Below, piece by piece: positions 1-16,446 of a stretch of 64,000 bases of DNA. The notes under the pieces are model-generated. The model was not told the origin of the DNA, did no database searches, and saw only the letters and a program-made list of their open reading frames with translations. This DNA is from a bacterium (GTDB taxonomy: Bacteria > UBP7 > UBA6624 > JBBIMK01), in NCBI GenBank assembly GCA_037444445.1, contig JBBIMK010000001.1, positions 5,012 to 69,011 on the forward strand, given 5' to 3'. Both the position numbers and the translations under genes were made by a program. Every line of letters starts with the position of its first letter. Within the stretch, counting starts at the first letter, position 1.

Positions 1-252
1 CGGGTCGTGGTGGTTTCGGACGAACTCAATAACTGATTCGTCCATTCCCACGAAGTGAGCGATGTTTTGCTTGATGAAATAAGCGCCCACGCCCGAATGG
101 GGCCACTTCTTCACAGCGTACCATTCCTTCGGCTCGTACTTTTCCCTGTGCCTGTGGGACCGCGAAACCAACTTACCGAGGTCGTGGAGGAGGGCGGCGA
201 GGGCGATTTTCAAAGCCCCGGAGGAGGGGGTGGATTTGTCTTCTTTATCCAT
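1..252 (-). CDS. Cas10/Csm1-like protein, N-terminal HD nuclease domain only (gene continues left, beyond the window)
   Basis: Reverse-strand translation from the ATG at 252: MDKEDKSTPSSGALKIALAALLHDLGKLVSRSHRHREKYEPKEWYAVKKWPHSGVGAYFIKQNIAHFVGMDESVIEFVRNHHDP. The HD motif (LLHDLGK) sits about 20 aa from the start. The HSGVGAYF and NHH elements match the layout of the Csm1 N-terminal HD domain (LLHDIGKxxxR..H..VGAxxF...YHH). The frame stays open to the window edge. Confidence 0.5.
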   Translation of the reverse strand, partial: MDKEDKSTPSSGALKIALAALLHDLGKLVSRSHRHREKYEPKEWYAVKKWPHSGVGAYFIKQNIAHFVGMDESVIEFVRNHHDP

Positions 253-302
253 TCTGGCTCTTATTATATCGCAGGATGGGGGGGGTAAGTCCTTTTTAAT
301 TT

Positions 303-731
303 TCATTTCCCCATTTTTTTCAGGAGGATTTTTTCCTGCTGATGGAGCCGGGGGAGGTAATCCCGGTAGAGAAAGCGAACGGTTCGCTCATATTTCAAGC
401 GAATATCTTCTGACTGAGAATAGAGGTATTTGCCAGTTCGGATGATTTCAAACTGGAGAATATAAGGGGCTGTCTGCAGGTCTATGACATCCAGGCGGTC
501 GGTGGGAAGGGCTTGAGAAACATCAGCATAGAAAAGGGAGTCAGAAAAGCCCTCATCCGGAAGAATGGCAAGGTCAATATCTATGGCAGCAGAAAGGTGG
601 GAAGCGGCGGAACCGAAAAGGTAACAGAGCCGAAGGGAATGTCGGGGAAGAAGAGTTTTCAATAACTCCAACCGGTTCCGGATGTCTGCAGGCAGGGGTT
701 TGAGCCCGGCATATTTTTCGGGAAGACTCAT
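303..731 (-). CDS. MNT-type minimal nucleotidyltransferase (HepT/MNT antitoxin-like) with no HEPN partner
   Basis: 142 aa. Pol-beta-type nucleotidyltransferase signature LFGSAASHLSAAIDIDLAIL (GS-x10-DxD). Only 45 nt separate it from the downstream Cas10-like start, so there is no room for a HEPN gene. Confidence 0.75.
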   Translation of the reverse strand: MSLPEKYAGLKPLPADIRNRLELLKTLLPRHSLRLCYLFGSAASHLSAAIDIDLAILPDEGFSDSLFYADVSQALPTDRLDVIDLQTAPYILQFEIIRTGKYLYSQSEDIRLKYERTVRFLYRDYLPRLHQQEKILLKKMGK

Positions 732-858: not shown

Positions 859-1635
859 TCAGGGGTTGAGGGAGGTGGCGCCAAAGCCCATAGGGGTTTT
901 GTAGCCGATTCCGCAAAGGGGGGCGAAGGTGGCGAGAGCGGAGAGCATCTTTCGTTCGGGTTCGGAAAATTGCCCGGGGAAGTGGTATTCGCATTCGCCT
1001 TTGAAGCCGATGATGCTGTAGGTGGAGAAAGGGACGAGTTCAGTGTGGAGGCGGTAGCGGCCCACGAGGATGTGAGAGAAGAGGTTGTTGAGGTCGGGCG
1101 GGAAGGCGATGGGGCTGAAGGCATTCCAGCGGTCTAAAAGGGAAGCAAAGACGAGATGGGGGTCGGGGAAGAGGATGCTTTTCCCTTTCTGACGGAAGCA
1201 GGTGGGGGTGAGGAAGTGGAAGGTGATTCGGGTTGCGGGTTCTGCGTGCTGAAAGATTTCTTCAAAGGAGGTGGAAGCGACTTCTACAGACTGGATTCTG
1301 ATTTTGCCGGAGCCTAAGAGGGAAGGGGAGCGAAGAAGGAAGGCTTTTGTAATGATTTCGGGCTGGGGGCCGAAGTAGTGGAGAATCAAGGTGAACCCTG
1401 TTTTTTCGGAGATGGAAAGGGAGCCTTTTTCGGGACGTTGGGCGGTGAGGAGATGTATGGAGAAGGGTTTCCGGGGAAGGTGATGGAGTCTGTCGGCAAG
1501 GGGGGCGCTGGATTTTTGGAGGAGGGTAAAGAAAAGGGCGTGGGCTTCTTCACCGCCGTAGCCCCGTAGAGATAGAGCCTGGAGAGATTTCAACCGGATC
1601 TGGAAGGAGTGGATGGAGGGATTCACAGGGTTCAA
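859..1635 (-). CDS. cas6: Cas6-family CRISPR endoribonuclease
   Basis: 258 aa. C-terminal glycine-rich loop GIGYKTPMGFG matches the Cas6 GhGxxxxxGhG signature. The N-terminal beta-alpha segment (IRLKSLQALSLRGYGGEEAHALFFTLL) resembles the Cas6 ferredoxin fold start. TTG start. Lies next to the Cas10-like gene. Confidence 0.65.
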   Translation of the reverse strand: MNPVNPSIHSFQIRLKSLQALSLRGYGGEEAHALFFTLLQKSSAPLADRLHHLPRKPFSIHLLTAQRPEKGSLSISEKTGFTLILHYFGPQPEIITKAFLLRSPSLLGSGKIRIQSVEVASTSFEEIFQHAEPATRITFHFLTPTCFRQKGKSILFPDPHLVFASLLDRWNAFSPIAFPPDLNNLFSHILVGRYRLHTELVPFSTYSIIGFKGECEYHFPGQFSEPERKMLSALATFAPLCGIGYKTPMGFGATSLNP

Positions 1636-2840
1636 GCCTTTGAGGTTGGAGGGTTTTGTTCTAATAAGGCGGTTTGGAGGCGTTTTACCATCAGGGTGGC
1701 GTAGGAAGCGGGGGGGAGGGAACAGTGAAGCCAGGCTTTGAGCCTGCCGGGATAGAGTTCATCTGGCTCAAAGGGGCTGAGTTGAAGGGTTTCCGGGAAG
1801 AGAAGGAAATTGCGGGGGGTAGATTTGAAGCAGGCTCTTTTGAGCCACGGCAGGCGAAAGGCTTCTGGAGTGAGTTTTTCACGGGAGAGAATTTCCTCAT
1901 AAACCTTCAGGAATAGAGGGTCGGAAGGAAGTGATGTGGCATCTACCAGCGGGAGTTTTGCTTGCCGGAGGTAGTCGAGTTTGTCGTCAGGAAGGGTTTG
2001 ATAGAAGTAGAAGGAACCAGCCGGATGCTTCCAGATGAGAAAGGGTTCGTCGGGCAGGAATTTTTGGAGGATGAGAATAGCCATTTCGTTCCAGAGGTAA
2101 CTCTGGTAAGCGTTGATGAGAATGGAAAGAAGGTGAGAAGGAATCTGGTTGACGGCCTGTGTGAAGGCGGTGGGGTGGTTTTTTAAGAAGGTGAGAATTT
2201 TTTGCTCACTGCCTCTGGGAGTCAGGGGCAGGGCTTTATGCCAGTTGCCCCAGTGGTGGAAGAGGAAGCGTTTGAAGGCTTTGATGCGGGCGGGGTCTTC
2301 GCGAGATGGCTGGGCGAGGAAGAGTTTCAGGGCACCCTCCGGGTCGTTCTTCAGCAGACGGTCGGCGAAGAACCCCTTCCCGTGACGGGCGCTCCCAAAT
2401 CGCTGCTCGTCAAAGTAGTTCACCACTCCGAACTGAGCGATTTCTTTCAGGGATTGCAGGATTTTTGAGCGGTGGGCCTTCGGTATGTGACGAAGGAGGA
2501 TTTTGAAGCGATTGCCCTTGAGGAGTCGGGAAGTGATAGGTTCATCGGCGTAGCCAATGTGAATGAGGGAAAAGTTCTGCTGGTGGATGGAGCGGGATGG
2601 CGGGGGATTGCCTGTAATGGACAGGTATTGAACGGTAAGGGCATGGCGGTCTTTTAATCCAGCGTAGTGGAAATTTCTTTCTGGTAAGCGAAGGTGACGG
2701 GAGAGGATGGAGACACAGTCCAGGGTGGTGAGGCTCTTTTTTTCCAGGCGAAAGATAGCGTGTTTTCCAGAGGAACTGAGAGTGGGTAGATGGAGAGTTT
2801 CTTCTACGATGAATTCTTCGGGTTTGACTTTAATTTTCAC
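1632..2840 (-). CDS. truD: tRNA pseudouridine synthase TruD/Pus7 family
   Basis: 402 aa. Motifs PEEFIVEE, HYAGLKDRHALT (catalytic Asp in the GxKD motif) and NYFDEQRFG match TruD motifs I and II. GTG start. The stop TGA overlaps the cas6 TTG start (GCTTGAAC). Confidence 0.85.
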   Translation of the reverse strand: MKIKVKPEEFIVEETLHLPTLSSSGKHAIFRLEKKSLTTLDCVSILSRHLRLPERNFHYAGLKDRHALTVQYLSITGNPPPSRSIHQQNFSLIHIGYADEPITSRLLKGNRFKILLRHIPKAHRSKILQSLKEIAQFGVVNYFDEQRFGSARHGKGFFADRLLKNDPEGALKLFLAQPSREDPARIKAFKRFLFHHWGNWHKALPLTPRGSEQKILTFLKNHPTAFTQAVNQIPSHLLSILINAYQSYLWNEMAILILQKFLPDEPFLIWKHPAGSFYFYQTLPDDKLDYLRQAKLPLVDATSLPSDPLFLKVYEEILSREKLTPEAFRLPWLKRACFKSTPRNFLLFPETLQLSPFEPDELYPGRLKAWLHCSLPPASYATLMVKRLQTALLEQNPPTSKA

Positions 2841-2890
2841 GGTGGCATGTTAGGGCAAGAGGGTGAGAGGGCAAGAGGGAGAGAGGGCAG
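2841..2890. repeat. Imperfect tandem 16-mer (AGGGCAAGAGGGWGAG, about 2.5 copies); pyrimidine-rich on the transcribed (minus) strand just upstream of truD
   Basis: gggcaagagggtgagagggcaagagggagagagggcag read directly from the sequence. Confidence 0.6.
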
Positions 2891-3286
2891 TTATTTTGAG
2901 TTCCTCCTATTGGCTTGCTTCTTCCTTAAAGTTCCGATGAATGGGTTCAGCATGGGCAAAATTTCAAGGCAACTGGACTTCCTTGCTGAAAAAGTATCTT
3001 CATCAATAAAAATGAGGGTGTGGGGCTTGATGAGCCAGTTTAAGGTTTCGTGGGTAGACCCTCGTGCAATGGTGAGGGAATGAATATATTCAGCCCCACT
3101 TCGCCTGTCCCAGCCTTCAGCGATATTGGTGGAAATAGAGCCAGTGGAACGGATAAGTTTCCCAGCAATTGTCCGTGGGGAGGTTTTCGGTGGAAATCTT
3201 TCTACATCTTCTGCTACTCGGAGGAATAGTTCATGAGCCTTTCGCCATAAAACCAGCTCCTGAAAAGATTCCACTTTTTTCTCCAT
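2891..3286 (-). CDS. Four-helix-bundle protein (23S rRNA intervening-sequence protein / bAvd-like family)
   Basis: 131 aa. Segment NIAEGWDRRSGAEYIHSLTIARGSTHETLNWL is typical of the TIGR02436/PF05635 family. Confidence 0.6.
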   Translation of the reverse strand: MEKKVESFQELVLWRKAHELFLRVAEDVERFPPKTSPRTIAGKLIRSTGSISTNIAEGWDRRSGAEYIHSLTIARGSTHETLNWLIKPHTLIFIDEDTFSARKSSCLEILPMLNPFIGTLRKKQANRRNSK

Positions 3287-3438
3287 TCCAAGAGTTCATT
3301 ATATCTGATGTGGAAAGCGGTGAGACTCCACCGGAGCTTGTGTCCTTTGCATTTCCTATTCTCTGAACTTCCGTGCCCTCATCGTCTTTTGTCCCCTCGC
3401 TCTCCCTTTGGTATGATAAAGACAGGAGGGATGGAAGG

Positions 3439-3876
3439 ATGGCATATTTGAAGGAAATAGAGTTTAGCACGAAGGGGTTTAATCATATAGTGGATATTAC
3501 GGGGGATGTGCAGAAGGCGGTGGAGGAGTCAACTTATCGTGATGGGCTTGCCTGTGTGTTTGTGGCGGGGTCTACTGCTGGGGTGACGACGATTGAGTTT
3601 GAGGAAGGAGTGCTGGAGGATTTATCTAAGGCGATAGAGCGGATGGCACCGCAGAATATTCCATACGCTCACGACAGGAAATGGGGGGATGGGAATGGGT
3701 TTTCTCATGTGAGGGCGGCGCTGGTGGGGGCTTCACTGACGGTGCCATTTCAGGCGCGAAGATTGTTGCTGGGAACCTGGCAGCAGGTGGTGCTGGTGGA
3801 TTTTGACAACCGCCCCCGAAGGCGAAAGGTTTTTATTCAGGTTCTTGGAGGAAGAGAGGAAGGGGTGAGCGAGTAA
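3439..3876 (+). CDS. YjbQ/UPF0047 family protein (secondary thiamine-phosphate synthase-like)
   Basis: MAYLKEIEFSTKGFNHIVDITGDV...; aggagg Shine-Dalgarno before the internal ATG at 3439. Confidence 0.65.
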   Translation: MAYLKEIEFSTKGFNHIVDITGDVQKAVEESTYRDGLACVFVAGSTAGVTTIEFEEGVLEDLSKAIERMAPQNIPYAHDRKWGDGNGFSHVRAALVGASLTVPFQARRLLLGTWQQVVLVDFDNRPRRRKVFIQVLGGREEGVSE

Positions 3877-3890
3877 AAGGGGGAAGGCAA

Positions 3891-5633
3891 GTGGAAGAAA
3901 AAATCTGGTTTAAGTATTATGACAATTATGTGAAAAAGCATCTGGAATATCCAGATATTTCCCTTCATGAGTTGGTCTCATCAAGAGCCAGGGAGCACTG
4001 GAATAAAACTGCTCTGGTGTTTATGCAATATCGGATGAGTTATAAGCAACTGGAAGAAGAAAGCAACTGTTTTGCGCATTTTTTGTTGAAGAAGGGGATT
4101 GGGAAGGGGAAGCAGGTGGTGCTGGTGCTGGCGAACACGCCGCACTTTCCAGTGGCGTATTATGGGGTATTAAAGGCGGGGGCAACGGCGGTGCCGGTGA
4201 ACCCATTATATACTGCCCGGGAACTGGTATATTTTTTGAAAGATTCTGAAGCTTCTCTGGTGGTCGCGTTTGATATGTTTGCGCAGCGGGTGAGGAGTGC
4301 GTGCGAAGAGGCGGGGATTCGGGATGTGGTGGTGGGGAGTGCGGCGGATTATCTTCCACCCATTCAAGCGTTTCTGTATCGTTTCCTGAAAAAGGGAAGG
4401 GGAGAAGGAAAGCAGAGAAGCGAAGGAGGGATGAGGAGTTCAGGGGTTGAAAATCGGGGTGGGGAGTTCGGAGTTCGGAGTTCGGGGTTGAAGGGTTTCA
4501 GTGCTAAAGAATTGGTGGGAATAGGGTTTCGGCAGGCATTGAGAGAAGGCTCACCCTACCCTACCGGGGTTCAGGTGAAGGGAGATGACCTGGCGACATT
4601 GATTTATACGGGTGGAACGACTGGAGTTTCTAAGGGGGCTATGCTATTACATCGGAATTTAGTGGCAAATACTTTACAGTGTTCTGCGTGGTTTCCCGAG
4701 ATCAGCCAGGGGCGAGCCACTTTCGTGGCGGTGATGCCATTTTTTCATTCCTTTGGCCTCACAGTGGCATTGAATTTTGGGCTGTATATGGGGGCGGAGA
4801 TTGTGTTAATTCCCCGGTTTCATGCCAGAACCCTGCTTGAAACATTACAGATACTTCGTCCACCGGTTGTTCTTCCCGCAATTCCTTCTATCTTTTCAGC
4901 GATTAACCACTTTCCGAGGATTGAGCAGTATAATCTTTCATCGCTCTGGGTTTCTATCAGCGGTGGTGCGCCATTGCCGGTAGAGGTGCAGAAGAAGTTT
5001 GAAGCATTAACTCATTCTATACTGGTGGAAGGGTTTGGGCTGACGGAAACTTCACCGGTGACCCATGTGAACCCACTCCTCGGGAAGCGGAAGGAGGGGA
5101 GTATTGGATTACCTTTGCCGGATACGGATGTGAAGATAGTGGATGTGGAAAATGGTAAGAAGGAACTACCGGCAGGAGAAGAAGGAGAAGTTATTATCAA
5201 AGGTCCTCAAGTTATGGCTGGCTACTGGAAGAATGCGGAGGAAACGGCGAAAGTTCTTATGGATGGGTGGCTTTACACGGGCGACATCGGAAGGATGGAT
5301 GAAGACGGGTTCTTTTATATCGTGGACCGGAAGAAGGATATGGTTATCACGGAGGGGTTTAATGTATTTCCGAGGGAGATTGAGGAGGTTTTATATACTC
5401 ATCCGAAGGTGAAAGATGCGGCGGCGGTGGGCGTAAAAGACCGCTTAAAAGGAGAAGTGGTGAAGGCGTTCGTAGTTCCTAAGGAGGGCGAAATCCTGAC
5501 AAAAGAAGAAATCCTGAACTACTGTCAGGAGCATCTTGCCTGGTATAAAGTTCCGAAGTCTGTGGAATTTTTGCAGGAGTTGCCCAGAAGCGCCATCGGG
5601 AAAGTGTTGAGAAGGGAATTGAAAAAGCAATGA
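3891..5633 (+). CDS. fadD: Long-chain fatty-acid--CoA ligase (AMP-binding superfamily)
   Basis: YTGGTTGVSKGAMLLHRNL (A3 motif), GYWKNAEETAK, GDIGRMDEDGFFYIVDRKKD. GTG start preceded by aagggggaagg. Contains a G/R/S-rich low-complexity segment. Confidence 0.85.
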   Translation: MEEKIWFKYYDNYVKKHLEYPDISLHELVSSRAREHWNKTALVFMQYRMSYKQLEEESNCFAHFLLKKGIGKGKQVVLVLANTPHFPVAYYGVLKAGATAVPVNPLYTARELVYFLKDSEASLVVAFDMFAQRVRSACEEAGIRDVVVGSAADYLPPIQAFLYRFLKKGRGEGKQRSEGGMRSSGVENRGGEFGVRSSGLKGFSAKELVGIGFRQALREGSPYPTGVQVKGDDLATLIYTGGTTGVSKGAMLLHRNLVANTLQCSAWFPEISQGRATFVAVMPFFHSFGLTVALNFGLYMGAEIVLIPRFHARTLLETLQILRPPVVLPAIPSIFSAINHFPRIEQYNLSSLWVSISGGAPLPVEVQKKFEALTHSILVEGFGLTETSPVTHVNPLLGKRKEGSIGLPLPDTDVKIVDVENGKKELPAGEEGEVIIKGPQVMAGYWKNAEETAKVLMDGWLYTGDIGRMDEDGFFYIVDRKKDMVITEGFNVFPREIEEVLYTHPKVKDAAAVGVKDRLKGEVVKAFVVPKEGEILTKEEILNYCQEHLAWYKVPKSVEFLQELPRSAIGKVLRRELKKQ

Positions 5634-5655
5634 ACACCATACACGCGATTACGAG

Positions 5656-6789
5656 TTAGATTCCCAGTAAAGATTGGTAGACCTGGAGAGTTTTCTGTGT
5701 AAATTGCTGGATGGAAAAATGATGCATGGCGCGAAGGAATCCTGCTTCTCCCATTTTTTTCGCTTTTTCAGGGTTTTGAAATAGTTCCTGAAGGGCATCG
5801 GCGAGAGAAGAAGTGTCGCCGGGCGGGAATAAAATGCCCGTTTCACCGGGCTGGATGACATCCAGGATTCCACCGTGGGCAGAGGCAATTACCGCCTTTT
5901 TCATTGCCATTGCCTCCAGGGCAGTTCTACCAAATGCCTCGGGTACCGTGGATGGAACCACTACTACATCTAAGATGCTGAGATAGAGGGGAACATTTTC
6001 AGTGAAGCCGGTGAAACGGACGAATTCCTGGAGATGCCATTGATTGACGAGATTGAGCATAGAGTTTTTGTAGCCTATATGGGCCCTGGCATCGCCCACA
6101 ATGACTGCATAGAGGGGATAGTTTTTTTTATGGAGAAGCGATAATGCCTTCAAGAAGACCAGATGCCCTTTTCCGGGAGAAAGCCTGCCAATCATACCTG
6201 CTACAAAAGCATCTGTGGGGATGTGGAGTTGTTCTCTCAATCGGGCGCTTTCCTGCATAGCAGGGGGAGCAAATTCATTGAAGTTGATGCCCCGTGGTAT
6301 GACGATGATTTTATGTGAGGGAATGCGGAATTTTAACACGAGGTAATCCGCAAGGGGATGACTGACCACGATGATTTTCTCACCCAGCATAATGGAGCGT
6401 GAGAGGAGATGAGGACGGTAATAACCGTGTGCCGTGGTCAGAAAATGACAGGAAGTAGAGCGCGTGGCAAGATAGGCAACCCACGCGGGCATGCGAGAGC
6501 GAGCATGAACGATTTGTATCCCTTCTTTCTGGAGGAATCGCTTTAGAGGGAGTATGCAGGAAAGGGCGAGGAAAGGGTTTTTGGAACCGATGGGGAGAGT
6601 GAAGTGCACTCCGCCGATTTTTTCAATTTCAGAGACGAGCCTGCCTCCACCGGAAACCACACAGGGATTGGAGCCAGATTGAACGAGGGCATGAGCAATT
6701 TCAACAGTGCCTCGCTCCACACCCCCGTAGTCCAATCGTGGAAGCACCTGCAACACTTTCATAGGTAACTCATGTAAATTATAGACCAT
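5656..6789 (-). CDS. Glycosyltransferase family 1 (GT4-like)
   Basis: C-terminal EAFGRTALEAMAMKKAVIAS, typical of the GT-B E-x7-E region. Confidence 0.8.
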   Translation of the reverse strand: MVYNLHELPMKVLQVLPRLDYGGVERGTVEIAHALVQSGSNPCVVSGGGRLVSEIEKIGGVHFTLPIGSKNPFLALSCILPLKRFLQKEGIQIVHARSRMPAWVAYLATRSTSCHFLTTAHGYYRPHLLSRSIMLGEKIIVVSHPLADYLVLKFRIPSHKIIVIPRGINFNEFAPPAMQESARLREQLHIPTDAFVAGMIGRLSPGKGHLVFLKALSLLHKKNYPLYAVIVGDARAHIGYKNSMLNLVNQWHLQEFVRFTGFTENVPLYLSILDVVVVPSTVPEAFGRTALEAMAMKKAVIASAHGGILDVIQPGETGILFPPGDTSSLADALQELFQNPEKAKKMGEAGFLRAMHHFSIQQFTQKTLQVYQSLLGI

Positions 6790-6815
6790 AAGGGCATAAG
6801 CCTTATAATAGAGGT

Positions 6816-8624
6816 GTGTGCGGGATTGCCGGGATTCTTCGGTTTGATGGCGGGAAAGTAGAGCAGGACTGGCTGAAGCAGATGGCGGAGAGTTTGAAAC
6901 ACCGGGGTCCGGATGGAGAGGGGTATTATGTGGACCGGGCGGAGAGATTTGGGCTGGCTTTCCGCAGGCTTGCCATTATTGACCTGGTGACGGGCGACCA
7001 GCCTATGTGCAACGAAGATAGCTCCATCTGGATTGTCTTGAATGGAGAAATTTACAATTTTATTGACATCCGAAGGCAGCTGGACGGGCACGGGCATTAC
7101 TTCAAAACCCAGAGTGATACGGAAAGCGTTCTTCATGCTTATGAAGAGTGGGGCCCGGATTGCATAGAGAGATTGCGAGGGATGTTTGCATTTCTGATTT
7201 TAGACCTGCGTTCCAGGAAGATATTCTTCGTTCGCGACCGCCTGGGAATTAAACCTTTTTATTACTCCTTCCAGAGCGGTATTTTTACCTTCGCCTCTGA
7301 ATTGAAAGCATTTCATCGGTTACCTTTCCTGAACCTGGAGATACATATACCTTCAGTAGTTGACTATCTGCGATATGGATATGTGCCATCGCCGGCAACG
7401 ATTTTTGCGGGTATTCATAAATTGCCTCCTGCCTGTGCGGGTGTGATAGATTTCAGCCGTGAAAGGGTTCTCCCGGTGGAGCCCATAGTGCGCAGGTACT
7501 GGAAGCCCCGATGGGAAGCCAATGAAAAACCCACCCTGAAAGAGTGGATGAAAAAGTTAGAGGAGAAGTTGAAGGAAACTGTCTCCACCTACCTGGTGTC
7601 GGATGTGCCGCTGGGAGCCTTTTTAAGCGGTGGAACGGATTCCTCTACTGTGGTGGCATTGATGGCACAGACGGCAGGTAAGGAGAGGGTAAAAACTTTC
7701 TCTATCGGGTATAAAGAGCGTCTGTTCAATGAACTTCCTTATGCTCGTCTGGTGGGGAAAAAGTATGAAACAGAATCTACGGAAAAGATTATTGCTTCTG
7801 AGGAACTGGAGAAAGCGGCAGAGCAGTTACCCCGGATTTTTGATGAACCATTTGCGGACTCTTCCGCATTGCCAACTTACTGTGTTTCAGCACTGGCAAG
7901 TGAAAAAGTAAAGGTGGCTCTCTCTGGAGATGGTGGGGATGAATTGTTCGCAGGTTACGGAAGATATAGAAAGGTTCTGAAAATGAGCCACGGGGGATTT
8001 TCCCTCCTGAAATGGCGATGGACTCCCGTGCATCCCCTCGAAATCTTTGAAAGCGGTCAGCGAATTTTTACCGATGCACAGATTTCGCAAATTATTCTTC
8101 CAGAATATTCTCCTTACATTCACCCATCGGACTATTTTCTTCAGTTTTTTGAAGAAGGAGCCGAGTGGGATCTACTTTCTGCACTTCAGCATATAGATTT
8201 AATGACCTACCTGCCTGAAAATAACCTGACGAAGGTGGACCGGGCGAGCATGGCTCACGGGTTAGAGGTTCGGGTGCCATTTCTGGACCATGAAGTCGTG
8301 GAACTGGCTGTGACAATTCCTCCTGAGTTACGACACCCGGGCAGGCAGAGGAAATATATCCTGAAAAAGGTGATGGAATCTCACCTGCCACGGCGGGTGC
8401 TTTACCGAAAGAAACGTGGGTTTTCTATTCCTCTTCGTTTGTGGATGAAAGGGGGATTTCTGAAGAAAGTGAAAGAGAGCCTGCTTTCACCGGAGATGAG
8501 AAATTTTGCGACAGAAAAGGGTGTGATGAAACTACTGAAGGAACAGGAAAAAAATCCACGCCGGATGTCAGCCCATCTGTGGGCATTACTTTTCTTTAGC
8601 CGGTGGCTGACCACCTGGAAGTGA
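6816..8624 (+). CDS. asnB: Asparagine synthase (glutamine-hydrolysing)
   Basis: N-terminal MCGIAG Ntn-amidotransferase start; SGGTDSS PP-loop. Confidence 0.9.
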   Translation: MCGIAGILRFDGGKVEQDWLKQMAESLKHRGPDGEGYYVDRAERFGLAFRRLAIIDLVTGDQPMCNEDSSIWIVLNGEIYNFIDIRRQLDGHGHYFKTQSDTESVLHAYEEWGPDCIERLRGMFAFLILDLRSRKIFFVRDRLGIKPFYYSFQSGIFTFASELKAFHRLPFLNLEIHIPSVVDYLRYGYVPSPATIFAGIHKLPPACAGVIDFSRERVLPVEPIVRRYWKPRWEANEKPTLKEWMKKLEEKLKETVSTYLVSDVPLGAFLSGGTDSSTVVALMAQTAGKERVKTFSIGYKERLFNELPYARLVGKKYETESTEKIIASEELEKAAEQLPRIFDEPFADSSALPTYCVSALASEKVKVALSGDGGDELFAGYGRYRKVLKMSHGGFSLLKWRWTPVHPLEIFESGQRIFTDAQISQIILPEYSPYIHPSDYFLQFFEEGAEWDLLSALQHIDLMTYLPENNLTKVDRASMAHGLEVRVPFLDHEVVELAVTIPPELRHPGRQRKYILKKVMESHLPRRVLYRKKRGFSIPLRLWMKGGFLKKVKESLLSPEMRNFATEKGVMKLLKEQEKNPRRMSAHLWALLFFSRWLTTWK

Positions 8625-8671
8625 TGGCAAAAGGGCAAGAAAGCAGAAAGAGGCATAAAGATTTTTCTGTT

Positions 8672-10810
8672 CTATGCGGTTTTGTCCTGTGCGGTAAGCA
8701 GAATGCGAGCATCCACGACGAAAGCACCCTGGCCTTCAGGCATAGCGAGAAGAGGGTTAATGTCCAGTTCATCAATATCTTGAAGTTCTGTGGCAAGCTG
8801 GGATAGGCGTTCCAGGTATTCCACAATGCGGGGAATATCAGAGGGGGGCTCACCCCGGAAGCCCCGGAGGATAGAATACCCTTTGATTTCCGTAATCATG
8901 CGTCGGGCGCCAAGTTCACGGATAGGTGCGATGCGGAAGGTTACATCCTTGAAGGCTTCCACATAAATTCCTCCGAGGCCAAACATCAAAAGAGGTCCGA
9001 AGTGAGGGTCCTTTCGCATGCCGAGGATGGTTTCTTTTCCACCCGAAATCATTTTTTGAACCAGAACACCCCAGATAGGAGCATCAGGTTGTGCGGATTG
9101 GATTCTCTTCAACAGATAATGATATTCCCTTCGGAGCATATAAGAGTTTTGGATATTCAAGACCACTCCACCTAAATCCACCTTGTGGATGATACTGGGA
9201 GAAACAATTTTAAGAACTACCGGGAAACCGATATTTTCTGCGTATGAAACGGCTTCTTCCTCGCTGGTGGCAAGGGCGTAGGGAGAAATGGAGAAACCGT
9301 AAGATTCTAAAATGCGGTAAGTTTCAGGTTCGGGGAGGAAAAGGCGTTTTTCTTCTCTGGCTTTTTTCAGGGTCTGTCGGGCGATTTCAGGATGGATATC
9401 AGTGAAAAGGTGGACGGGGGTTCTGGGGCGGTGAACCCACCAGGCGTATCTGGCCATATAAGCCAGAGCACGCACCGCTGATTCCGGGAAGCGGTAGTTG
9501 GGAATATTGGCCGAGTCCAGAATCTGGAGGGTAGAGCCAATGTCACGAGTTGCCATAAAAGAAGCGAGGACAGGCTTTGAGGATGCCTTCGCCAGGCGAA
9601 CGATGGTATGGGCAATGGCGGTGGAATCGGTGGCAATGTGAGGTGTGCAGATAACGAGAATGGAATCTATGGCATCGTCTTCCAGAACGAGTCGTAGTGC
9701 GGATTCATATCGGTCTTCCTTTGCATCTCCAATGAGGTCAATGGGATTTCGGAGAGAAGCGGTAGGTGGAAGGATACTCTGAAGTTTTTTAAGAGTAGAA
9801 GGGGAAGGCTCGGGGAGAGAGAGTCCATGTCGTATGGCGGTGTCCGTAGCGATGATGGCGGGACCGCCGGCGTTGGTAATGATAGCCAGGCGGTTTCCGC
9901 GGGGTAGAGGCTGGGTTGAAAAAGCCGTGGCATAATCAAAGAGTTCTTCTAAGGTGTTAACGCGAAAGACACCGCACTGTTCAAACAGAAATTCGTAGGC
10001 TTCGTCGGTGCCTGCGAGGGCAGCGGTATGGGAAGCGGCAGCCTTCGCTCCTTCTACGGTTCGGCCAGATTTAATAGCGAGGATGGGCTTGGATTTCGGC
10101 AAATCTCCGGTAATTTGTGAAGCAATTTCTATGAAGCGTTTCGGATTCTCTAAATCTTCAAGATAGAGGAGAATCACATCGGTCTGGGGGTCGGAGGCTA
10201 AAAAAGCAAGCAGGTCATTTTCTGAGATGTCCGCTTTGTTTCCGACAGAGATGAATTTAGAAATGCCAATATTCTGGGCTTGAACATATTCCAATGCGGC
10301 GGCTCCCAAAGCGCCACTCTGGGAGATAAAAGCAATATTCCCCGGTTCAGGCATTACACGGCCAAAGGTGGCATTGAAACGAATGGCAGGGTCAGCATTG
10401 ATGACGCCAAAACAGTTTGGGCCAATCAGGGATATGTGGTAACGGCTTGCCACAACCCGTAAAGATTCCTGTCGGTTTATTCCCTCTTCCCCCAGTTCAG
10501 CAAAGCCCGCAGAAATGATAATGGCGCCTTTTACACCCTTTTTACCACAGTCTTCCATAACCGCCACCGCTTTCGTGCAGGGAACTACTACAACGGCCAG
10601 TTCCACCTCATCCGGAATGTCCAGCACAGTGGGATAACAGCGCACACCGAGAATACTCCGGGTGGAGGGATTTACTGGATAGACAACGCCCGAGTAACCG
10701 CTGAAAAGGATGTTAGAGAAGATAGCATGGCCTATGGAGCCAACCCGTCGTGAAGCCCCGATGACCGCTACGGATGTGGGCGACAATAGTGAGCGAACTT
10801 CTTTTTCCAT
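8672..10810 (-). CDS. ADP-forming acyl-CoA (acetyl-CoA) synthetase, fused alpha-beta
   Basis: 712 aa. N-terminal CoA-binding VAVIGASRRVGSIGHAI; C-terminal ATP-grasp region. Confidence 0.75.
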   Translation of the reverse strand: MEKEVRSLLSPTSVAVIGASRRVGSIGHAIFSNILFSGYSGVVYPVNPSTRSILGVRCYPTVLDIPDEVELAVVVVPCTKAVAVMEDCGKKGVKGAIIISAGFAELGEEGINRQESLRVVASRYHISLIGPNCFGVINADPAIRFNATFGRVMPEPGNIAFISQSGALGAAALEYVQAQNIGISKFISVGNKADISENDLLAFLASDPQTDVILLYLEDLENPKRFIEIASQITGDLPKSKPILAIKSGRTVEGAKAAASHTAALAGTDEAYEFLFEQCGVFRVNTLEELFDYATAFSTQPLPRGNRLAIITNAGGPAIIATDTAIRHGLSLPEPSPSTLKKLQSILPPTASLRNPIDLIGDAKEDRYESALRLVLEDDAIDSILVICTPHIATDSTAIAHTIVRLAKASSKPVLASFMATRDIGSTLQILDSANIPNYRFPESAVRALAYMARYAWWVHRPRTPVHLFTDIHPEIARQTLKKAREEKRLFLPEPETYRILESYGFSISPYALATSEEEAVSYAENIGFPVVLKIVSPSIIHKVDLGGVVLNIQNSYMLRREYHYLLKRIQSAQPDAPIWGVLVQKMISGGKETILGMRKDPHFGPLLMFGLGGIYVEAFKDVTFRIAPIRELGARRMITEIKGYSILRGFRGEPPSDIPRIVEYLERLSQLATELQDIDELDINPLLAMPEGQGAFVVDARILLTAQDKTA

Positions 10811-10870
10811 ATTCTATCCTTATTGTAAGGGAAGTTATAATGCTTCACAAAATGAGCGGATCGTTGTAAA

Positions 10871-11950
10871 ATGAATCATGGGATGAAAGCCGTAGCAGGA
10901 GCAGAAACGCTGGCTGAGATTTTAGACGGGCTGACAGTAGAAGGGAGGCTTTATGACCGATTGCCGGGAGAGAAGGTTCGCTGTTATGCCTGCGGGCATC
11001 GGTGTGTCATATTCAATGGACAGCGCGGGATTTGCCAGGTTCGGTACAACAAAAATGGGGTTCTTTATGTGCCTTATGGATATGTGGGGGCTCTTCAATG
11101 CGACCCGATAGAAAAGAAACCCTTTTTTCATGTGTTACCCGGTAGCCGGGCTCTCACTTTCGGAATGCTGGGTTGTGATTTTCACTGCTCTTACTGTCAG
11201 AACTGGCTCACGAGCCAGGCATTGAGGGACCCGGCAGCGGGAGTCTCACCGATGGAAGTCACACCGGAGCAAATGCTGGAACTGGCAAAACGGTTTCAAG
11301 CGGATCTGGTGGTCAGTTCGTATAATGAACCCTTAATTACCTCTGAATGGGCGGTGGGAATCTTTCAACTGGCAAAGCAATCGGGATTACGAACCGGATA
11401 TGTATCCAATGGAAATGTAACGGGTGAAGTGCTGGATTATCTCCACCTTTACACAGACTGTTACAAGATAGATTTGAAAACGATGAATGACCGGAATTAT
11501 CGGAAACTGGGCGGAGTTCTGCAACATGTACTGGACGCCGTGAAACTGGTATATGAAAAGGGATTCTGGCTGGAAGTTGTGACCCTGGTGATACCGGGAT
11601 TTAATGATTCAGATGAGGAACTCCGGGAAGCGGCACGATATATTGCAGGTGTGTCAACGGATATTCCCTGGCATGTCACAGCGTTTCATAAGGACTATAA
11701 GATGACAGACCCTGATAACACTCCGCCGAAAACTCTATTGCGGGCGGCAGAGATTGGAAGAGAGGAAGGACTTCATTTCGTCTATGCTGGGAATTTGCCG
11801 GGCTGGGTGAAAAGTCTGGAAAATACTTATTGTCCGACCTGTCACACTTTATTGGTTCAACGCTACGGTTATACGATTGAAAAAGACTTATTAAGCGGGT
11901 CTGGCTCTTGCCCACAGTGCCAGACGAAAATTCCCGGCATCTGGCAGTAA
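10871..11950 (+). CDS. Radical SAM protein, AmmeMemoRadiSam (AmrS) / PFL-activating-enzyme-like
   Basis: CDFHCSYC (Cx3Cx2C), plus an N-terminal Cys cluster CYACGHRC and a C-terminal CPTC...CPQC. Confidence 0.65.
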   Translation: MNHGMKAVAGAETLAEILDGLTVEGRLYDRLPGEKVRCYACGHRCVIFNGQRGICQVRYNKNGVLYVPYGYVGALQCDPIEKKPFFHVLPGSRALTFGMLGCDFHCSYCQNWLTSQALRDPAAGVSPMEVTPEQMLELAKRFQADLVVSSYNEPLITSEWAVGIFQLAKQSGLRTGYVSNGNVTGEVLDYLHLYTDCYKIDLKTMNDRNYRKLGGVLQHVLDAVKLVYEKGFWLEVVTLVIPGFNDSDEELREAARYIAGVSTDIPWHVTAFHKDYKMTDPDNTPPKTLLRAAEIGREEGLHFVYAGNLPGWVKSLENTYCPTCHTLLVQRYGYTIEKDLLSGSGSCPQCQTKIPGIWQ

Positions 11951-11980
11951 AGGTAAAGAAGAGAAAAGCACAGGCTATAT

Positions 11981-12925
11981 TCACTTATCTGAGGGGCGAC
12001 TGGTTGTGGAAGGAGGTTCTGGATGTCCGCCGCCCCAGAGCATCGGTAAAGCATGGAATAGACCCGGTAAAATTGCCTGGAGAGATTCAGAAGCGCCCTT
12101 AGAACTGCCGGGTAGATTGACAATCAGGGTTTTCCCTTTCACGCCGGCGATTCCTCTGGAGAGCATGGAGTAAGGGGTGCGACGCTGGCCAAAGGCTCGT
12201 GCTGCTTCCAGGATTCCGGGAACTTCACGGTCAATGATGGCCTCTGTAGCTTCAACGGTTACATCTCGGGGTCCCAGCCCTGTTCCGCCTGTGGTCATAA
12301 TCAGGTCTATGCCTGCCTGACATTGCTTCAGGAGTTCCTGGATGATTTTCTCTCGGTCGTCAGGTAAAATCACATAGGACTCTACTTGCACTCCGTTGGA
12401 TTTTAGTAGTTCGGCGATGATTTTGCCGGATTTGTCCTGACGCTTACCTGCATAAGTACCATCGGAGGTTACAATCACAGCCGCTCGTAAAGGTTTTTCA
12501 AAAAAGGTGAGAAAATCTTTTTTTCCACCTTTCTTTTCAAGCAGGCGTATTGATTGAATCTCCAGGGTTTCATCCAGAGGTTTCAGCATATCATAGGCAG
12601 TGAGAGCGGCCAGCGTTGCGGCGAGAAGCGCTTCCATTTCTACCCCTGTTTTCCACACGGATTTCACATGGCTCTGAATGAGAAGGGAGGATTCCTGGAG
12701 GGTGAACTCCAGAGTGACAGCATCCACTGGAACAGGGTGGCAAAAGGGAATGAGTTCGGAGGTGCGCTTGGCGGCCAGGATGCCCGCCGTCCTTGCGACT
12801 TCTAAAACATTGCCCTTCGGCACTGACTGATTTTCTATAGATTTCCGTGTGGAAGGAAGCATTTTCAAGATAGCCTCGGCTTTCGCTTCCCGGAGTGTAT
12901 CCGGCTTCGGGCTCACATCTATCAT
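11981..12925 (-). CDS. moaC: Bifunctional MoaC (cPMP synthase) / MogA-MoaB (molybdopterin adenylyltransferase)
   Basis: N-terminal MoaC-like half; C-terminal MogA motif GGTGLGPRD. Confidence 0.8.
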   Translation of the reverse strand: MIDVSPKPDTLREAKAEAILKMLPSTRKSIENQSVPKGNVLEVARTAGILAAKRTSELIPFCHPVPVDAVTLEFTLQESSLLIQSHVKSVWKTGVEMEALLAATLAALTAYDMLKPLDETLEIQSIRLLEKKGGKKDFLTFFEKPLRAAVIVTSDGTYAGKRQDKSGKIIAELLKSNGVQVESYVILPDDREKIIQELLKQCQAGIDLIMTTGGTGLGPRDVTVEATEAIIDREVPGILEAARAFGQRRTPYSMLSRGIAGVKGKTLIVNLPGSSKGASESLQAILPGLFHALPMLWGGGHPEPPSTTSRPSDK

Positions 12926-12967
12926 CGTCCTGACACTCCCATAATAAAGAAATTCACCGGATGATGG

Positions 12968-13231
12968 CTATCCTCCGCTAATGGGTGGAAGGACAGCAAT
13001 TTCTTCATCACCCTGAAATTGGTAAGTATCCTCGGGGAGAGTTTGATTGACTGCGAAGGCCAATGCATCACCCAACTTCTGGAGTTTCGGGTATTTCTCA
13101 AATAGAAGATTTTTCAGCACCTTCAGAGTGGGGTTCTCCGGCAGGTCCATCCATTCTTCCTTCACACCTGTTATTTGCTTCGTTTGAGCAAAGTATAAAA
13201 TTTTCACCCTATGAGAGGATGAGAAAGCCAT
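12968..13231 (-). CDS. moaD: Molybdopterin synthase sulfur-carrier subunit MoaD
   Basis: Ends in GG; MoaD-like. Start taken at the internal ATG (MAFSSS...) to avoid overlap with moaA. Confidence 0.65.
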   Translation of the reverse strand: MAFSSSHRVKILYFAQTKQITGVKEEWMDLPENPTLKVLKNLLFEKYPKLQKLGDALAFAVNQTLPEDTYQFQGDEEIAVLPPISGG

Positions 13232-13238
13232 GGAAAAA

Positions 13239-14255
13239 TCACCCCCCAATCGCATGCATGGTGCGAGTCGGTCTCACAAACCCAGGCAAATTAATCAGAT
13301 GCCCTTCTTCTTTCATTGACACTGCACTGGCGAGGAAGTCAGCAATTTCCTGGTCAGAAGCGTTGCCGCGCAGGAGAGGCTTCAGGTCAAATTCTTTTGT
13401 GGCGAAGAGGCAAGTTCGGAAGAAACCATCCGCAGTGAGGCGAATTCGGTCGCATAAATGACAGAAGGGCTGTGATACACTGGAGATGATTCCGATTTCA
13501 CCTCTGCCATCATCAAAAACATAGCGTTTTGCCGGGTCAGAGCCATCGGGATCAACGGGGGTAAAAGGAGCCACGCGATGAACATGTTGAAGGATTTCTT
13601 CGGCGGAAATCACCATTTCTCGTCTCCACATCCCGGCGCTATCCAGAGGCATAAACTCAATGAATCGGACGGTGATGTTTTCGTCACGAGCAAACCTCGT
13701 AAAGGCTTCAATTTCATCATCGTTTATACCACGAATCAGCACGACATTAATTTTTACCGGAGTGAACCCCACTCGTCGGGCTTCCTGGATTCCCGCTATA
13801 ACTTTATCAAAAGCATCTCTTCTCACGATTTCAGCAAATTTCTCTCTGCTGAGGGTATCCAGGCTAATGTTCAAGCCATCTAAGCCAGCATCTTTCAATG
13901 CCTGAACTTTCTCTAATAGAAAGTATCCGTTTGTAGTCATGGAGATGGAAGCAAGGCCGGGAATCTGTCGGAGAAAATGAACCAGCACCTCCACATTTTT
14001 ACGCACAAGAGGCTCTCCTCCCGTCAGGCGAATCTTTTGAACGCCGAGGTTCACTGCGATGTGGACGATACGGTAAATTTCTTCAAAGGTAAGAATACTC
14101 TCCCGTGGAAGCCAGGTGATTTCAGAATCGGGTAGGCAATATAAGCAACGGAAATTGCACCGGTCAGTTACAGAAACTCTTAATTTACGGGCAATTCGGC
14201 CGTAAGAGTCCACCAATTTATTCCCTCTACTTTGCGATAGTTTTGGCCCGTTCAT
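13239..14255 (-). CDS. moaA: GTP 3',8-cyclase MoaA (radical SAM)
   Basis: CNFRCLYC cluster motif, plus a C-terminal second cluster CHLCDRIRLTADG. Confidence 0.9.
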   Translation of the reverse strand: MNGPKLSQSRGNKLVDSYGRIARKLRVSVTDRCNFRCLYCLPDSEITWLPRESILTFEEIYRIVHIAVNLGVQKIRLTGGEPLVRKNVEVLVHFLRQIPGLASISMTTNGYFLLEKVQALKDAGLDGLNISLDTLSREKFAEIVRRDAFDKVIAGIQEARRVGFTPVKINVVLIRGINDDEIEAFTRFARDENITVRFIEFMPLDSAGMWRREMVISAEEILQHVHRVAPFTPVDPDGSDPAKRYVFDDGRGEIGIISSVSQPFCHLCDRIRLTADGFFRTCLFATKEFDLKPLLRGNASDQEIADFLASAVSMKEEGHLINLPGFVRPTRTMHAIGG

Positions 14256-14853
14256 ATTCTAACTTTGCCTCCTGGTATTGGGAGAAAGTGTTGATATTCA
14301 TAAATAGAGAAGAGAGCGGAAAGAGGGGAGCAAGTGAAGATTCATCAATGGAACAGATGGAAAGGCTGGAATGCTCCAAAAAGTCAGTCAGTGCATAACG
14401 TTTGTGCTGGAGGAACTTTTCCAAAATGCAGAGACAGGATTTCCGATAGAGAGCAGATAGAGGATGCCAGCGATTCCTGATCCGAGGAACGACCACATCA
14501 TAATGGTTCGCATGCTGATACAAAAATGAAAGATACTCCGGCGTTAAGAAAGGCAGATCACATGCCACCGCAAAAGAGAAAGGATACTGAGATGCCTCTA
14601 AACCAGTGTAAAGGCCCATCATAGGGCCGATTCCTTTCTCTCGGTCCAACAAAACTTTCACCTTTTTCAACGGGATAGGCAGCGAAATCGGGGGATTTGA
14701 GAAGACCACAAAAGTTTCACTCGCAACGATAGATATTCTATCAATGATATGCTCCAGAAGAGTCTTACCTGCCCAGGGGAGGAGGCGTTTATCTTCATGC
14801 ATTCGTCGGGATTTACCCCCTGCGAGGATGATAGCCGTGGCGTCACATTTCAT
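14227..14853 (-). CDS. mobA: Molybdenum cofactor guanylyltransferase MobA
   Basis: IILAGGKSRRM N-terminal motif. Confidence 0.75.
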   Translation of the reverse strand: MKCDATAIILAGGKSRRMHEDKRLLPWAGKTLLEHIIDRISIVASETFVVFSNPPISLPIPLKKVKVLLDREKGIGPMMGLYTGLEASQYPFSFAVACDLPFLTPEYLSFLYQHANHYDVVVPRIRNRWHPLSALYRKSCLCILEKFLQHKRYALTDFLEHSSLSICSIDESSLAPLFPLSSLFMNINTFSQYQEAKLEYERAKTIAK

Positions 14854-14897
14854 GCGAGCAAGATGGAACCAGTATTTTATCTGTTATTTTCAAGAAA

Positions 14898-15488
14898 TCA
14901 CAACCAGCCATAGAGAACAAGGGAAGAAAAAACGCGCCACGCAAAGATGCCAGTGAGTATGAGCAAGGAGATAGTCAGATAAAGAGGCCAGGGCGAATGG
15001 ACTTGAAGCCCCAGAATGACTTCTGTGAGCACGAGGAACAAGCAGATGGCTGAAATTTTTTTTCGGTTCTTCCTCAGTGCGCCGAGTTGCACCGCTAATT
15101 CCTCCGGCACAGGCTTATCCGGAGAGAGTTTCTCCAGGAAGCCTTCTATCTGGGGTTCAATTCGGAAAACAACCACATACAGGAGAGTGAGAATCACCAG
15201 AAAAACGCCCAGTTTTACATCCAGAACCCAATTGGAGAAAAATCCTGAAACACCTATTTCATCTACCCAAACCACGAGGAGCCCGGTGAGAAGAATAGTG
15301 AGAAGCCACCAAATACATCGTCGTGGAGCCTTAAAGATGATATTCTCCATATATCGGTCTACCGGATAGATGATTTTAGAACCCATCCGTGCACGCTCAT
15401 TTACAGCCATTAGCAGCCAAAAGGGACCTGCCATTAATACCGCAGAAAGCACATGAAATAGCAGAAGAACATTTCTTGCCTCTTGCAT
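14898..15488 (-). CDS. Hypothetical polytopic membrane protein
   Basis: 196 aa with multiple hydrophobic helices; no recognised motif. Confidence 0.4.
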   Translation of the reverse strand: MQEARNVLLLFHVLSAVLMAGPFWLLMAVNERARMGSKIIYPVDRYMENIIFKAPRRCIWWLLTILLTGLLVVWVDEIGVSGFFSNWVLDVKLGVFLVILTLLYVVVFRIEPQIEGFLEKLSPDKPVPEELAVQLGALRKNRKKISAICLFLVLTEVILGLQVHSPWPLYLTISLLILTGIFAWRVFSSLVLYGWL

Positions 15489-15573
15489 TTATTTTCGCCC
15501 CTCTACTGAATATTATACAGGATAACTGAAATGCTATAATTTCTTAAGACAATGGGAACGATAAATACCCCTT

Positions 15574-16446
15574 TTGAGTGAAAATCTTATGAGAATACGG
15601 ATAGGACATAGCCCGGATGCAGATGATGCGTTCATGTATTATGCCATCGCTACCAAGAAAATTGAAACAGAAAACATTCAGTTTGAGCAAGTAGTGGAAG
15701 ACATCCAGAGCCTGAATGAACGAGCAAAAACTGGAGAATTGGATGTTACTGCCATTTCCGCCCATGTCTATCCGCTGGTTCAGAAATTTTACGACATTCT
15801 TACCTGTGGTGCCAGCGTGGGAATTCGGTATGGGCCTATTTTGGTGGCACGCGAGAAGATGCCGGAGCTTCTCGTTCGCTCACTTCCCCACAGAATTTCG
15901 CTAAATTTTTCTGGAATGACCGTGGCTGTTCCAGGAAAATTGACTACGGCTTACCTTCTGCTGAAAATATACGGGAAGGATTTTCATGAGGTGGTAGTGC
16001 CTTTTGATAGAGTGCTCTGGGCTGTTCAAACAGAAAAGGTTGATCTGGGATTAGTGATTCATGAAGGACAACTTACCTATAAACAATATGGGCTGGTGAA
16101 AATCACAGACCTGGGCAAAATCTGGTATGAGAACACCCATTTGCCCGTTCCACTGGGGATTAATGTGATTCATAAAAGCCTTCCAGAACAAGAGAAGAAG
16201 AAGATAGTAGAAGTGATGAAACGGAGTATACTTTATGCACTTTCGCATCGTGAAGAGGCTTTCTCATACGCGCTTCAATATGGACGAGGAATTCCTGAGG
16301 AATTAGGGAAAAAATTTATACTGCAATATGTGAACTCTTATACTCTGCACATGGGGGAGAAAGGCAAAAAAGCCCTACGGAGGCTTTTTCAAAAAGCCTC
16401 AAGGAGGAAATTCCTGCCACCTGCGCATTCACTTCGGTGGATTTAG
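15574..16446 (+). CDS. mqnD: MqnA/MqnD family menaquinone (futalosine pathway) protein, MqnD-like
   Basis: N-terminal IRIGHSPDADDAFMYYAI resembles the MqnD GxSPCPNDxFxFYAL motif. Confidence 0.6.
   Translation: MSENLMRIRIGHSPDADDAFMYYAIATKKIETENIQFEQVVEDIQSLNERAKTGELDVTAISAHVYPLVQKFYDILTCGASVGIRYGPILVAREKMPELLVRSLPHRISLNFSGMTVAVPGKLTTAYLLLKIYGKDFHEVVVPFDRVLWAVQTEKVDLGLVIHEGQLTYKQYGLVKITDLGKIWYENTHLPVPLGINVIHKSLPEQEKKKIVEVMKRSILYALSHREEAFSYALQYGRGIPEELGKKFILQYVNSYTLHMGEKGKKALRRLFQKASRRKFLPPAHSLRWI

Follow-up and report, generated by a model that had tools for sequence, protein, structure and literature searches.

A predicted type III-A cas10/csm1 gene cut by the left edge of a bacterial DNA window

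Cas10, or Csm1, the large subunit of the type III-A (Csm) effector, is represented by several solved structures; PDB entries 6nud and 6ifn we take to be Csm1 of Streptococcus thermophilus, 4uw2 and 6mur Csm1 of Thermococcus onnurineus, 6xn3 Cas10 of Lactococcus lactis and 7uzw Cas10 of Staphylococcus epidermidis. The behaviour that is established for the Cas10 family (PMC6755085, PMC11551762, bioRxiv 10.1101/153262) can be outlined as follows. Cas6 would cut the pre-crRNA, the Cas10-Csm2-5 complex with its crRNA would bind the complementary transcript of an invader, and Csm3 would cleave the bound RNA. Target binding would license the HD domain of Cas10 for cleavage of single-stranded DNA, and the GGDD site of the Palm domain would produce cyclic oligoadenylates by which a CARF-HEPN RNase of the Csm6/Csx1 type would be switched on (same sources). 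Minimal nucleotidyltransferases (MNT), of which one is encoded at the locus described here, usually pair with HEPN proteins (PMC3710099), and in this known partnership MntA restrains HepT (PMC3710099, PMC13000451).

Here we analyse the left end of a bacterial stretch of DNA of 64,000 nucleotides, hereafter the window. According to the original prediction, the window begins inside a Cas10/Csm1-like gene and a type III effector module probably lies just to the left. The genes and elements of this region are listed in the order of transcription on the minus strand.

2840..1632, minus strand: truD, an ORF of the window
1635..859, minus strand, co-oriented with cas10: cas6, predicted crRNA-processing endoribonuclease of 258 aa (Pfam Cas6, TIGR01877, PADLOC)
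744-781 and 819-856, no strand assigned: two perfect 38-nt direct repeats with a 37-nt unique segment (782-818) between them
731..303, minus strand: solo MntA-like minimal nucleotidyltransferase of 142 aa (Pfam Polbeta, NCBIfam MntA)
253..302, minus strand: intergenic stretch from the nucleotidyltransferase stop to the cas10 start, with a -10-like GATATAAT (263-270) that precedes the ATG by 10 nt
252..1, minus strand: first 84 codons of the predicted cas10/csm1 (translation, matches to HD and Cas10/Csm1 models, identity to the full-length protein P0004, see below)

Translation of the minus strand yields a stop-free frame of 84 codons that opens with the ATG at 252-250, is in phase with base 1 and continues beyond the left edge; the encoded peptide is MDKEDKSTPSSGALKIALAALLHDLGKLVSRSHRHREKYEPKEWYAVKKWPHSGVGAYFIKQNIAHFVGMDESVIEFVRNHHDP. 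All three motifs on which the original prediction was based are present, viz. LLHDLGK at residues 21-27, H-x-GVGAYF as HSGVGAYF at 52-59 and NHH at 80-82, and the HD-domain ligands correspond to H23-D24 in LLHDLGK, H52 and H81-H82. The Cas10-type HD domain that had been proposed for these residues was recognised by Pfam HD above its cutoff (E 5.2e-7, 30.4 bits, cutoff 22), with Cas10/Csm1 as the best model in both NCBIfam (TIGR02578, E 1.3e-7, model positions 2-60 of 753) and PADLOC (Cas10, E 1.3e-7, model positions 1-52 of 577); the fragment's 30.7 bits on TIGR02578 is a limit set by its short length. Cas3 models were matched approximately 30-fold to 10,000-fold more weakly than Cas10 (PADLOC Cas3 4.6e-6; cas3_HD TIGR01596 0.002; Pfam Cas3_HD 0.0015), the Cas3 HD models all below curated cutoffs, and in NCBIfam some other families of the HD and HDIG type were weakly matched. 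With the 84-aa query, a word-indexed homologue search gave no match and a PDB search gave noise only. Taken by themselves, the 84 residues prefer Cas10 to a Cas3 HD domain only slightly and do not settle the interpretation. Read together with the full-length protein, the fragment is predicted to be most of the N-terminal HD nuclease domain of cas10/csm1.

The full-length protein was obtained by means of profile searches. When 1.84 billion representatives were searched exhaustively with the fragment by HMMER, three matches resulted, P0001 to P0003. P0001 has 199 aa, is 65% identical to the fragment and was named Cas10 by JGI; P0003 has 801 aa, is 43% identical over the fragment, contains a GGDD motif and scores 540 bits on the Csm1 model. 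P0002 is a low-complexity repeat protein and was set aside. Profile A1, built on P0001 and P0003, recovered P0004, an NCBI protein of 797 aa that shows 100% identity across 100% of the 84-aa fragment (84/84) and is recorded on one NCBI contig of 261,674 bp. By exact-sequence look-up the nucleotidyltransferase, TruD and five more window proteins were each traced to one NCBI contig with a length of 261,674 bp. Since 84 of 84 residues are identical and the record of a 261,674-bp contig is shared, P0004 is assigned as the product of the cas10 gene cut by the window edge, an assignment made by protein identity and contig record rather than by DNA. With P0004 as its product, cas10 is predicted to run 713 further codons past the left edge, and the contig extends leftward as well.

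P0004 is Csm1-like from end to end. On TIGR02578, the equivalog model of type III-A Cas10/Csm1, it scores 527.1 bits against a cutoff of 170 and covers model positions 2-753 of 753; the III-B Cmr2 model gives 40.8 bits, under its cutoff of 79.4. The cas3_HD model TIGR01596 (18.5 bits, cutoff 43.45) and PF18019 (18.9 bits, cutoff 23.1) both remain below threshold, and a Pfam/NCBIfam domain search found no helicase domain in P0004. The same search identified Pfam HD at residues 15-99 (4e-10, 40.4 bits), Csm1_B (PF18211) at 270-358 (7.7e-24) and Cas10-Cmr2_palm2 (PF22335) at 537-673 (9.8e-34). The motifs lie at 23-24 (HD), 257-261 (GDLSG) and 600-604 (SGGDD, with GGDD at 601-604), and a CxxC...CxxC arrangement, formed by CAGC at 415-418 and CAMC at 432-435, is a predicted zinc-binding site between the two Palm domains. 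In the PDB, the best matches belong without exception to type III-A Csm1, for instance the 6nud chain (E 2.4e-43). In these alignments LLHDLGK falls under LLHDIGK, the Csm1 motif that the original prediction had cited, and YSGGDD falls under YAGGDD or YSGGDD (6nud, 9g9a). GGDD is present in 215 of the 217 long homologues that were collected. In the word-indexed database the closest full-length relatives reach approximately 35% identity, and those named by their source are all Csm1, except for one "hypothetical protein".

By every sequence criterion that could be applied, P0004 is a type III-A Cas10/Csm1, which bears out the prediction that the window starts inside such a gene. The original prediction had proposed Cas10/Csm1 models and a search for GGDD Palm motifs in the upstream sequence, and for P0004 both returned a clear answer in the TIGR02578 score and SGGDD 600-604. 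It had also named as its counter-case a full-length protein that lacks Palm/cyclase domains; P0004 has Csm1_B as well as a palm2 domain with GGDD. The gene thus appears to be a complete and apparently functional cas10/csm1, encoding the predicted large subunit of a type III-A (Csm) effector. The HD and GGDD motifs of P0004 are intact, and from these catalytic motifs we predict both outputs, single-stranded DNA cleavage and synthesis of cyclic oligoadenylates.

The other genes of the effector were sought in the window and in relatives. PADLOC, applied to the 64 non-nested window ORFs that reach 90 aa, detected no Cas family besides Cas6, the remaining matches being generic ATPase and radical-SAM models, and Rfam at gathering thresholds gave no match in the window. 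Any effector module must therefore sit to the left of the window, as these ORFs hold no Cas family except Cas6. An exact search with the 60 nt of window positions 1-60 gave no match in either genome_contigs or metagenome_contigs, and with the window nucleotidyltransferase, TruD and P0004 as exact protein queries no contig was returned. A P0004-guided scan of genome_contigs yielded one distant Anaerolineae fragment only (L001), and a scan of metagenome_contigs with the alignment of P0004 and P0001 yielded nothing. As a stand-in for the left flank we used the contig of P0001, JGI metagenome contig Ga0484001_0002636 (hereafter L002).

L002 has the order cas6-cas10-csm2-csm3-csm4-csm5-csm6-like-CRISPR array. 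Cas10 of L002 aligns with P0004 across residues 5-797 in a single frame at 69.4% identity, and Cas6 of L002 has 42.7% identity to the window Cas6. The cutoffs of the four Csm models are all exceeded: Csm2 46.8 bits (cutoff 30.6), Csm3 198.5 (cutoff 90), Csm4 179.2 (cutoff 55) and Csm5 107.2 (cutoff 38.3). The Csm6-like protein of 452 aa shows weak, correctly ordered CARF/HEPN matches (TIGR02672 8.9e-9, PF22208 0.0033, PF09670 5.5e-5). The array consists of four repeats, the repeat ending in ATTGAAAC and resembling Rfam CRISPR-DR5 (35.5 bits, gathering 40). In all four relatives examined, L002 and the more distant L003, L004 and L005, cas10 is directly followed by csm2-csm3-csm4-csm5. We are therefore confident, from synteny, that csm2-csm5 follow cas10 to the left of the window on the source contig, and a CARF-HEPN Csm6-like effector and a real CRISPR array probably lie further left. 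Positions 252..1 are, in all likelihood, the 5' end of a type III-A cas10/csm1 with its csm module to the left.

The L002 contig has some peculiarities of its own. A single in-frame TGA at 8184-8186 interrupts its cas10 where P0004 has Gly202, and the gene was called as 199 + 545 aa. Nonsense mutation, sequencing error and read-through are all possible explanations of this TGA; a genetic code with TGA as Gly is unlikely, since the other genes of the contig look normal. Inactivation of cas10 can, judging from this codon, occur in the lineage. The array at 15225-15482 contains two adjacent identical spacers, units 15297-15369 and 15370-15442 being 99% identical, and is flanked by long 8-nt tandem repeats, (GAGGGAAC)n, at 14826-14961 and 15474-15561, with the reverse complement near the contig end at 517-627.

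In the window itself, cas6 is located approximately 600 bp upstream of cas10 on the same strand. Its product matches Pfam Cas6 (5.7e-21) and exceeds the TIGR01877 cutoff (71.8 bits, cutoff 58.65); PADLOC returned Cas6 and Cas6d at about 1e-26, with Cas6d as best model. The original prediction had taken cas6 together with the repeats as pointers to a type III-A locus. The cas6 part holds, by the TIGR01877 score; the repeats do exist, but are a weak argument, with similarity neither to the L002 repeat nor to an Rfam CRISPR-DR family.

The geometry of the pair is CRISPR-like, with two copies of 38 nt, one 37-nt spacer and cas6 alongside. No Rfam CRISPR-DR match was obtained for the 38-nt repeats even at E<=10, and no alignment with the CRISPR repeat of L002 exceeded those of shuffled controls. 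A handle of the ATTGAAAC type is found at the end of neither strand of the 38-nt repeat, no L002-like repeat occurs anywhere in the window, no stable fold of the 38-nt repeat was found, and an exact search of viral contigs with the core of the 37-nt segment gave no match. The 37-nt segment holds a perfect 8-bp hairpin (GGGAGGAG-acaag-CTCCTCCC). A third, degenerate repeat copy upstream of cas10 was considered and rejected, its score being matched by several unrelated positions of the window.

Each 38-nt copy carries TGATATAAT on the minus strand, which is the coding strand of the cas genes. The shorter GATATAAT occurs 7 times in the window versus 1.6 expected, and four of the seven copies, all on the minus strand, fall within the first 3.3 kb:

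263-270, 749-756, 824-831 and 3298-3305, minus strand: GATATAAT
35717, 36692 and 51012, plus strand: GATATAAT

Three of the minus-strand copies precede an ATG by 10-17 nt, namely those in front of cas10, the nucleotidyltransferase gene and the four-helix-bundle gene beyond truD; the fourth is in the upstream repeat copy. This arrangement suggests that the GATATAAT copies are putative -10 boxes whose leaders would be very short. For the 38-nt pair, a duplicated promoter element is at least as likely an explanation as a one-spacer mini CRISPR array.

Some further repeats and a related strain were noted in the region upstream of cas6. The four-helix-bundle gene beyond truD belongs to the 23S rRNA IVP family, and the gap between its stop and the truD start contains a 16-nt tandem repeat (AGGGCAAGAGGGAGAG x 2.4, window 2852-2889). 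A 7-nt tandem repeat, GGAGTTC x 3.9, is found at 4463-4489 within the AMP-binding ligase gene 3891-5633. A Logan contig of 27,017 bp (SRR11582170, hereafter L006) represents a related strain, 95.6% identical to and collinear with window 1815-15636 (13.8 kb). Its ligase homologue is 94% identical and 11 aa shorter exactly at the GGAGTTC repeat, which is therefore a strain-variable in-frame repeat. L006 stops at window 1815 inside truD, just before the cas6-cas10 region; this assembly break may reflect a strain-variable or repeat-rich CRISPR locus.

The nucleotidyltransferase gene between cas6 and cas10 is the only unusual feature of the operon; with it, and with no recognisable CRISPR array anywhere in the window, the locus departs from the textbook. 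The protein matches Pfam Polbeta (1.7e-13) and NCBIfam MntA at 57 bits, just below the cutoff of 60, has the motif G-S-x10-D-x-D intact and gave no PADLOC match. No suitably sized ORF for a HEPN (HepT) partner is present on either side, the neighbours being the repeat pair and cas10. No counterpart was detected in L002 by tblastn, and Pfam gave no nucleotidyltransferase match among the called genes of L003-L005. Since MNT enzymes partner HEPN proteins and Csm6 carries a HEPN domain, a regulatory link between the nucleotidyltransferase and Csm6 is conceivable. The protein might then be a dedicated type III-A accessory that AMPylates and thereby restrains a Csm6-type HEPN RNase encoded further left, or that acts on cyclic oligoadenylate, with the duplicated element as a repeat-borne promoter or a one-spacer array. 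The position of the gene and the known MNT-HEPN partnership are the basis of this proposal, which we regard as improbable.

The HD motifs of the fragment and the company of a nucleotidyltransferase gene also fit proteins other than a type III Cas10. A Cas3 or Cas3'' HD nuclease of a type I system, or an HD-bearing Cas10d of type I-D, would account for the Cas3 HD matches of the fragment given above and for Cas6d being the best PADLOC model of the neighbouring Cas6, and P0004 does share with Cas3''/Cas3 HD proteins (TIGR01596, PF18019) the HD-superfamily fold and the metal-ligand motifs. It differs from them in having neither a helicase nor the Cas3 architecture and in scoring below the curated cutoffs, while it follows the Csm1 model throughout; moreover, the neighbours in L002 are Csm2-5, not Cas7/Cas5/Cas3'. 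A type I protein is thus scarcely credible here. A generic HD phosphohydrolase, paired with the upstream nucleotidyltransferase as in CCA-adding enzymes and GlnD and bearing no CRISPR link, would explain why the gene comes directly after a co-oriented Pol-beta-type nucleotidyltransferase gene and why other HD/HDIG families are weakly matched. Such a protein would not be expected to carry the Csm1_B domain, predicted zinc-binding site and GGDD Palm2 of P0004, and in L002 cas10 comes directly after cas6 with no nucleotidyltransferase in between, so we give this pairing practically no weight. Given that P0004 is the product of this gene, its domains and model scores rule out the Cas3-HD, Cas10d and generic nucleotidyltransferase-plus-HD readings alike.

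A further possibility accepts the gene as Csm1 and concerns its surroundings: cas10 could be an orphan or decaying, with the csm2-5 module missing, rearranged or inactive in this genome. The left flank is known only through relatives, the locus is disturbed by the inserted nucleotidyltransferase gene and has no recognisable CRISPR array beside cas6, and the closest relative, L002, has the in-frame stop in its cas10. Against this, P0004 has its full length and every catalytic motif, Cas6 is intact as well, and the relatives agree, four out of four, in having csm2-5 directly after cas10. We consider an orphan cas10 very unlikely and retain the reading as a type III-A cas10/csm1 that heads a csm2-csm5 module.

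As to annotation the matter is settled: the gene interrupted at the left edge of the window is a standard type III-A cas10/csm1. A Csm-type system of RNA-guided defence, for which DNase activity and cyclic-oligoadenylate signalling are predicted, is or was thus present in the source organism. The Cas10/Csm1 family is already well described, as are its domains and mechanism, P0004 has been deposited publicly and is covered by a curated model, and there is no new biology in the gene; only the nucleotidyltransferase gene in the operon and the nature of the 38-nt "repeats" are mildly interesting. Compared with known type III-A loci, the window differs by the nucleotidyltransferase gene between cas6 and cas10. 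This gene resembles the HepT/MntA type VII toxin-antitoxin in encoding a Pol-beta minimal nucleotidyltransferase with G-S-x10-D-x-D, and differs from it in its score below the MntA cutoff, the lack of a HEPN partner and its location within a type III-A operon. The type III-A locus of L002 agrees with the window in having cas6 directly upstream of cas10 on the same strand, whereas it has neither the nucleotidyltransferase gene nor the 38-nt repeat pair between these two genes, its CRISPR repeat has no counterpart in the window and its cas10 contains the in-frame TGA. From the known Csm1 proteins P0004 is distant, with PDB E-values of about 1e-43 and approximately 35% identity to the nearest named Csm1 (Firmicutes, Anaerobranca). 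Nevertheless, it falls with its 797 aa in the same length class as the solved Csm1 of the TIGR02578 family, its HD dyad and GGDD align with theirs, and the predicted order of parts is the same: HD, Palm1/domain B, zinc-binding site, Palm2 with GGDD and a C-terminal helical domain.
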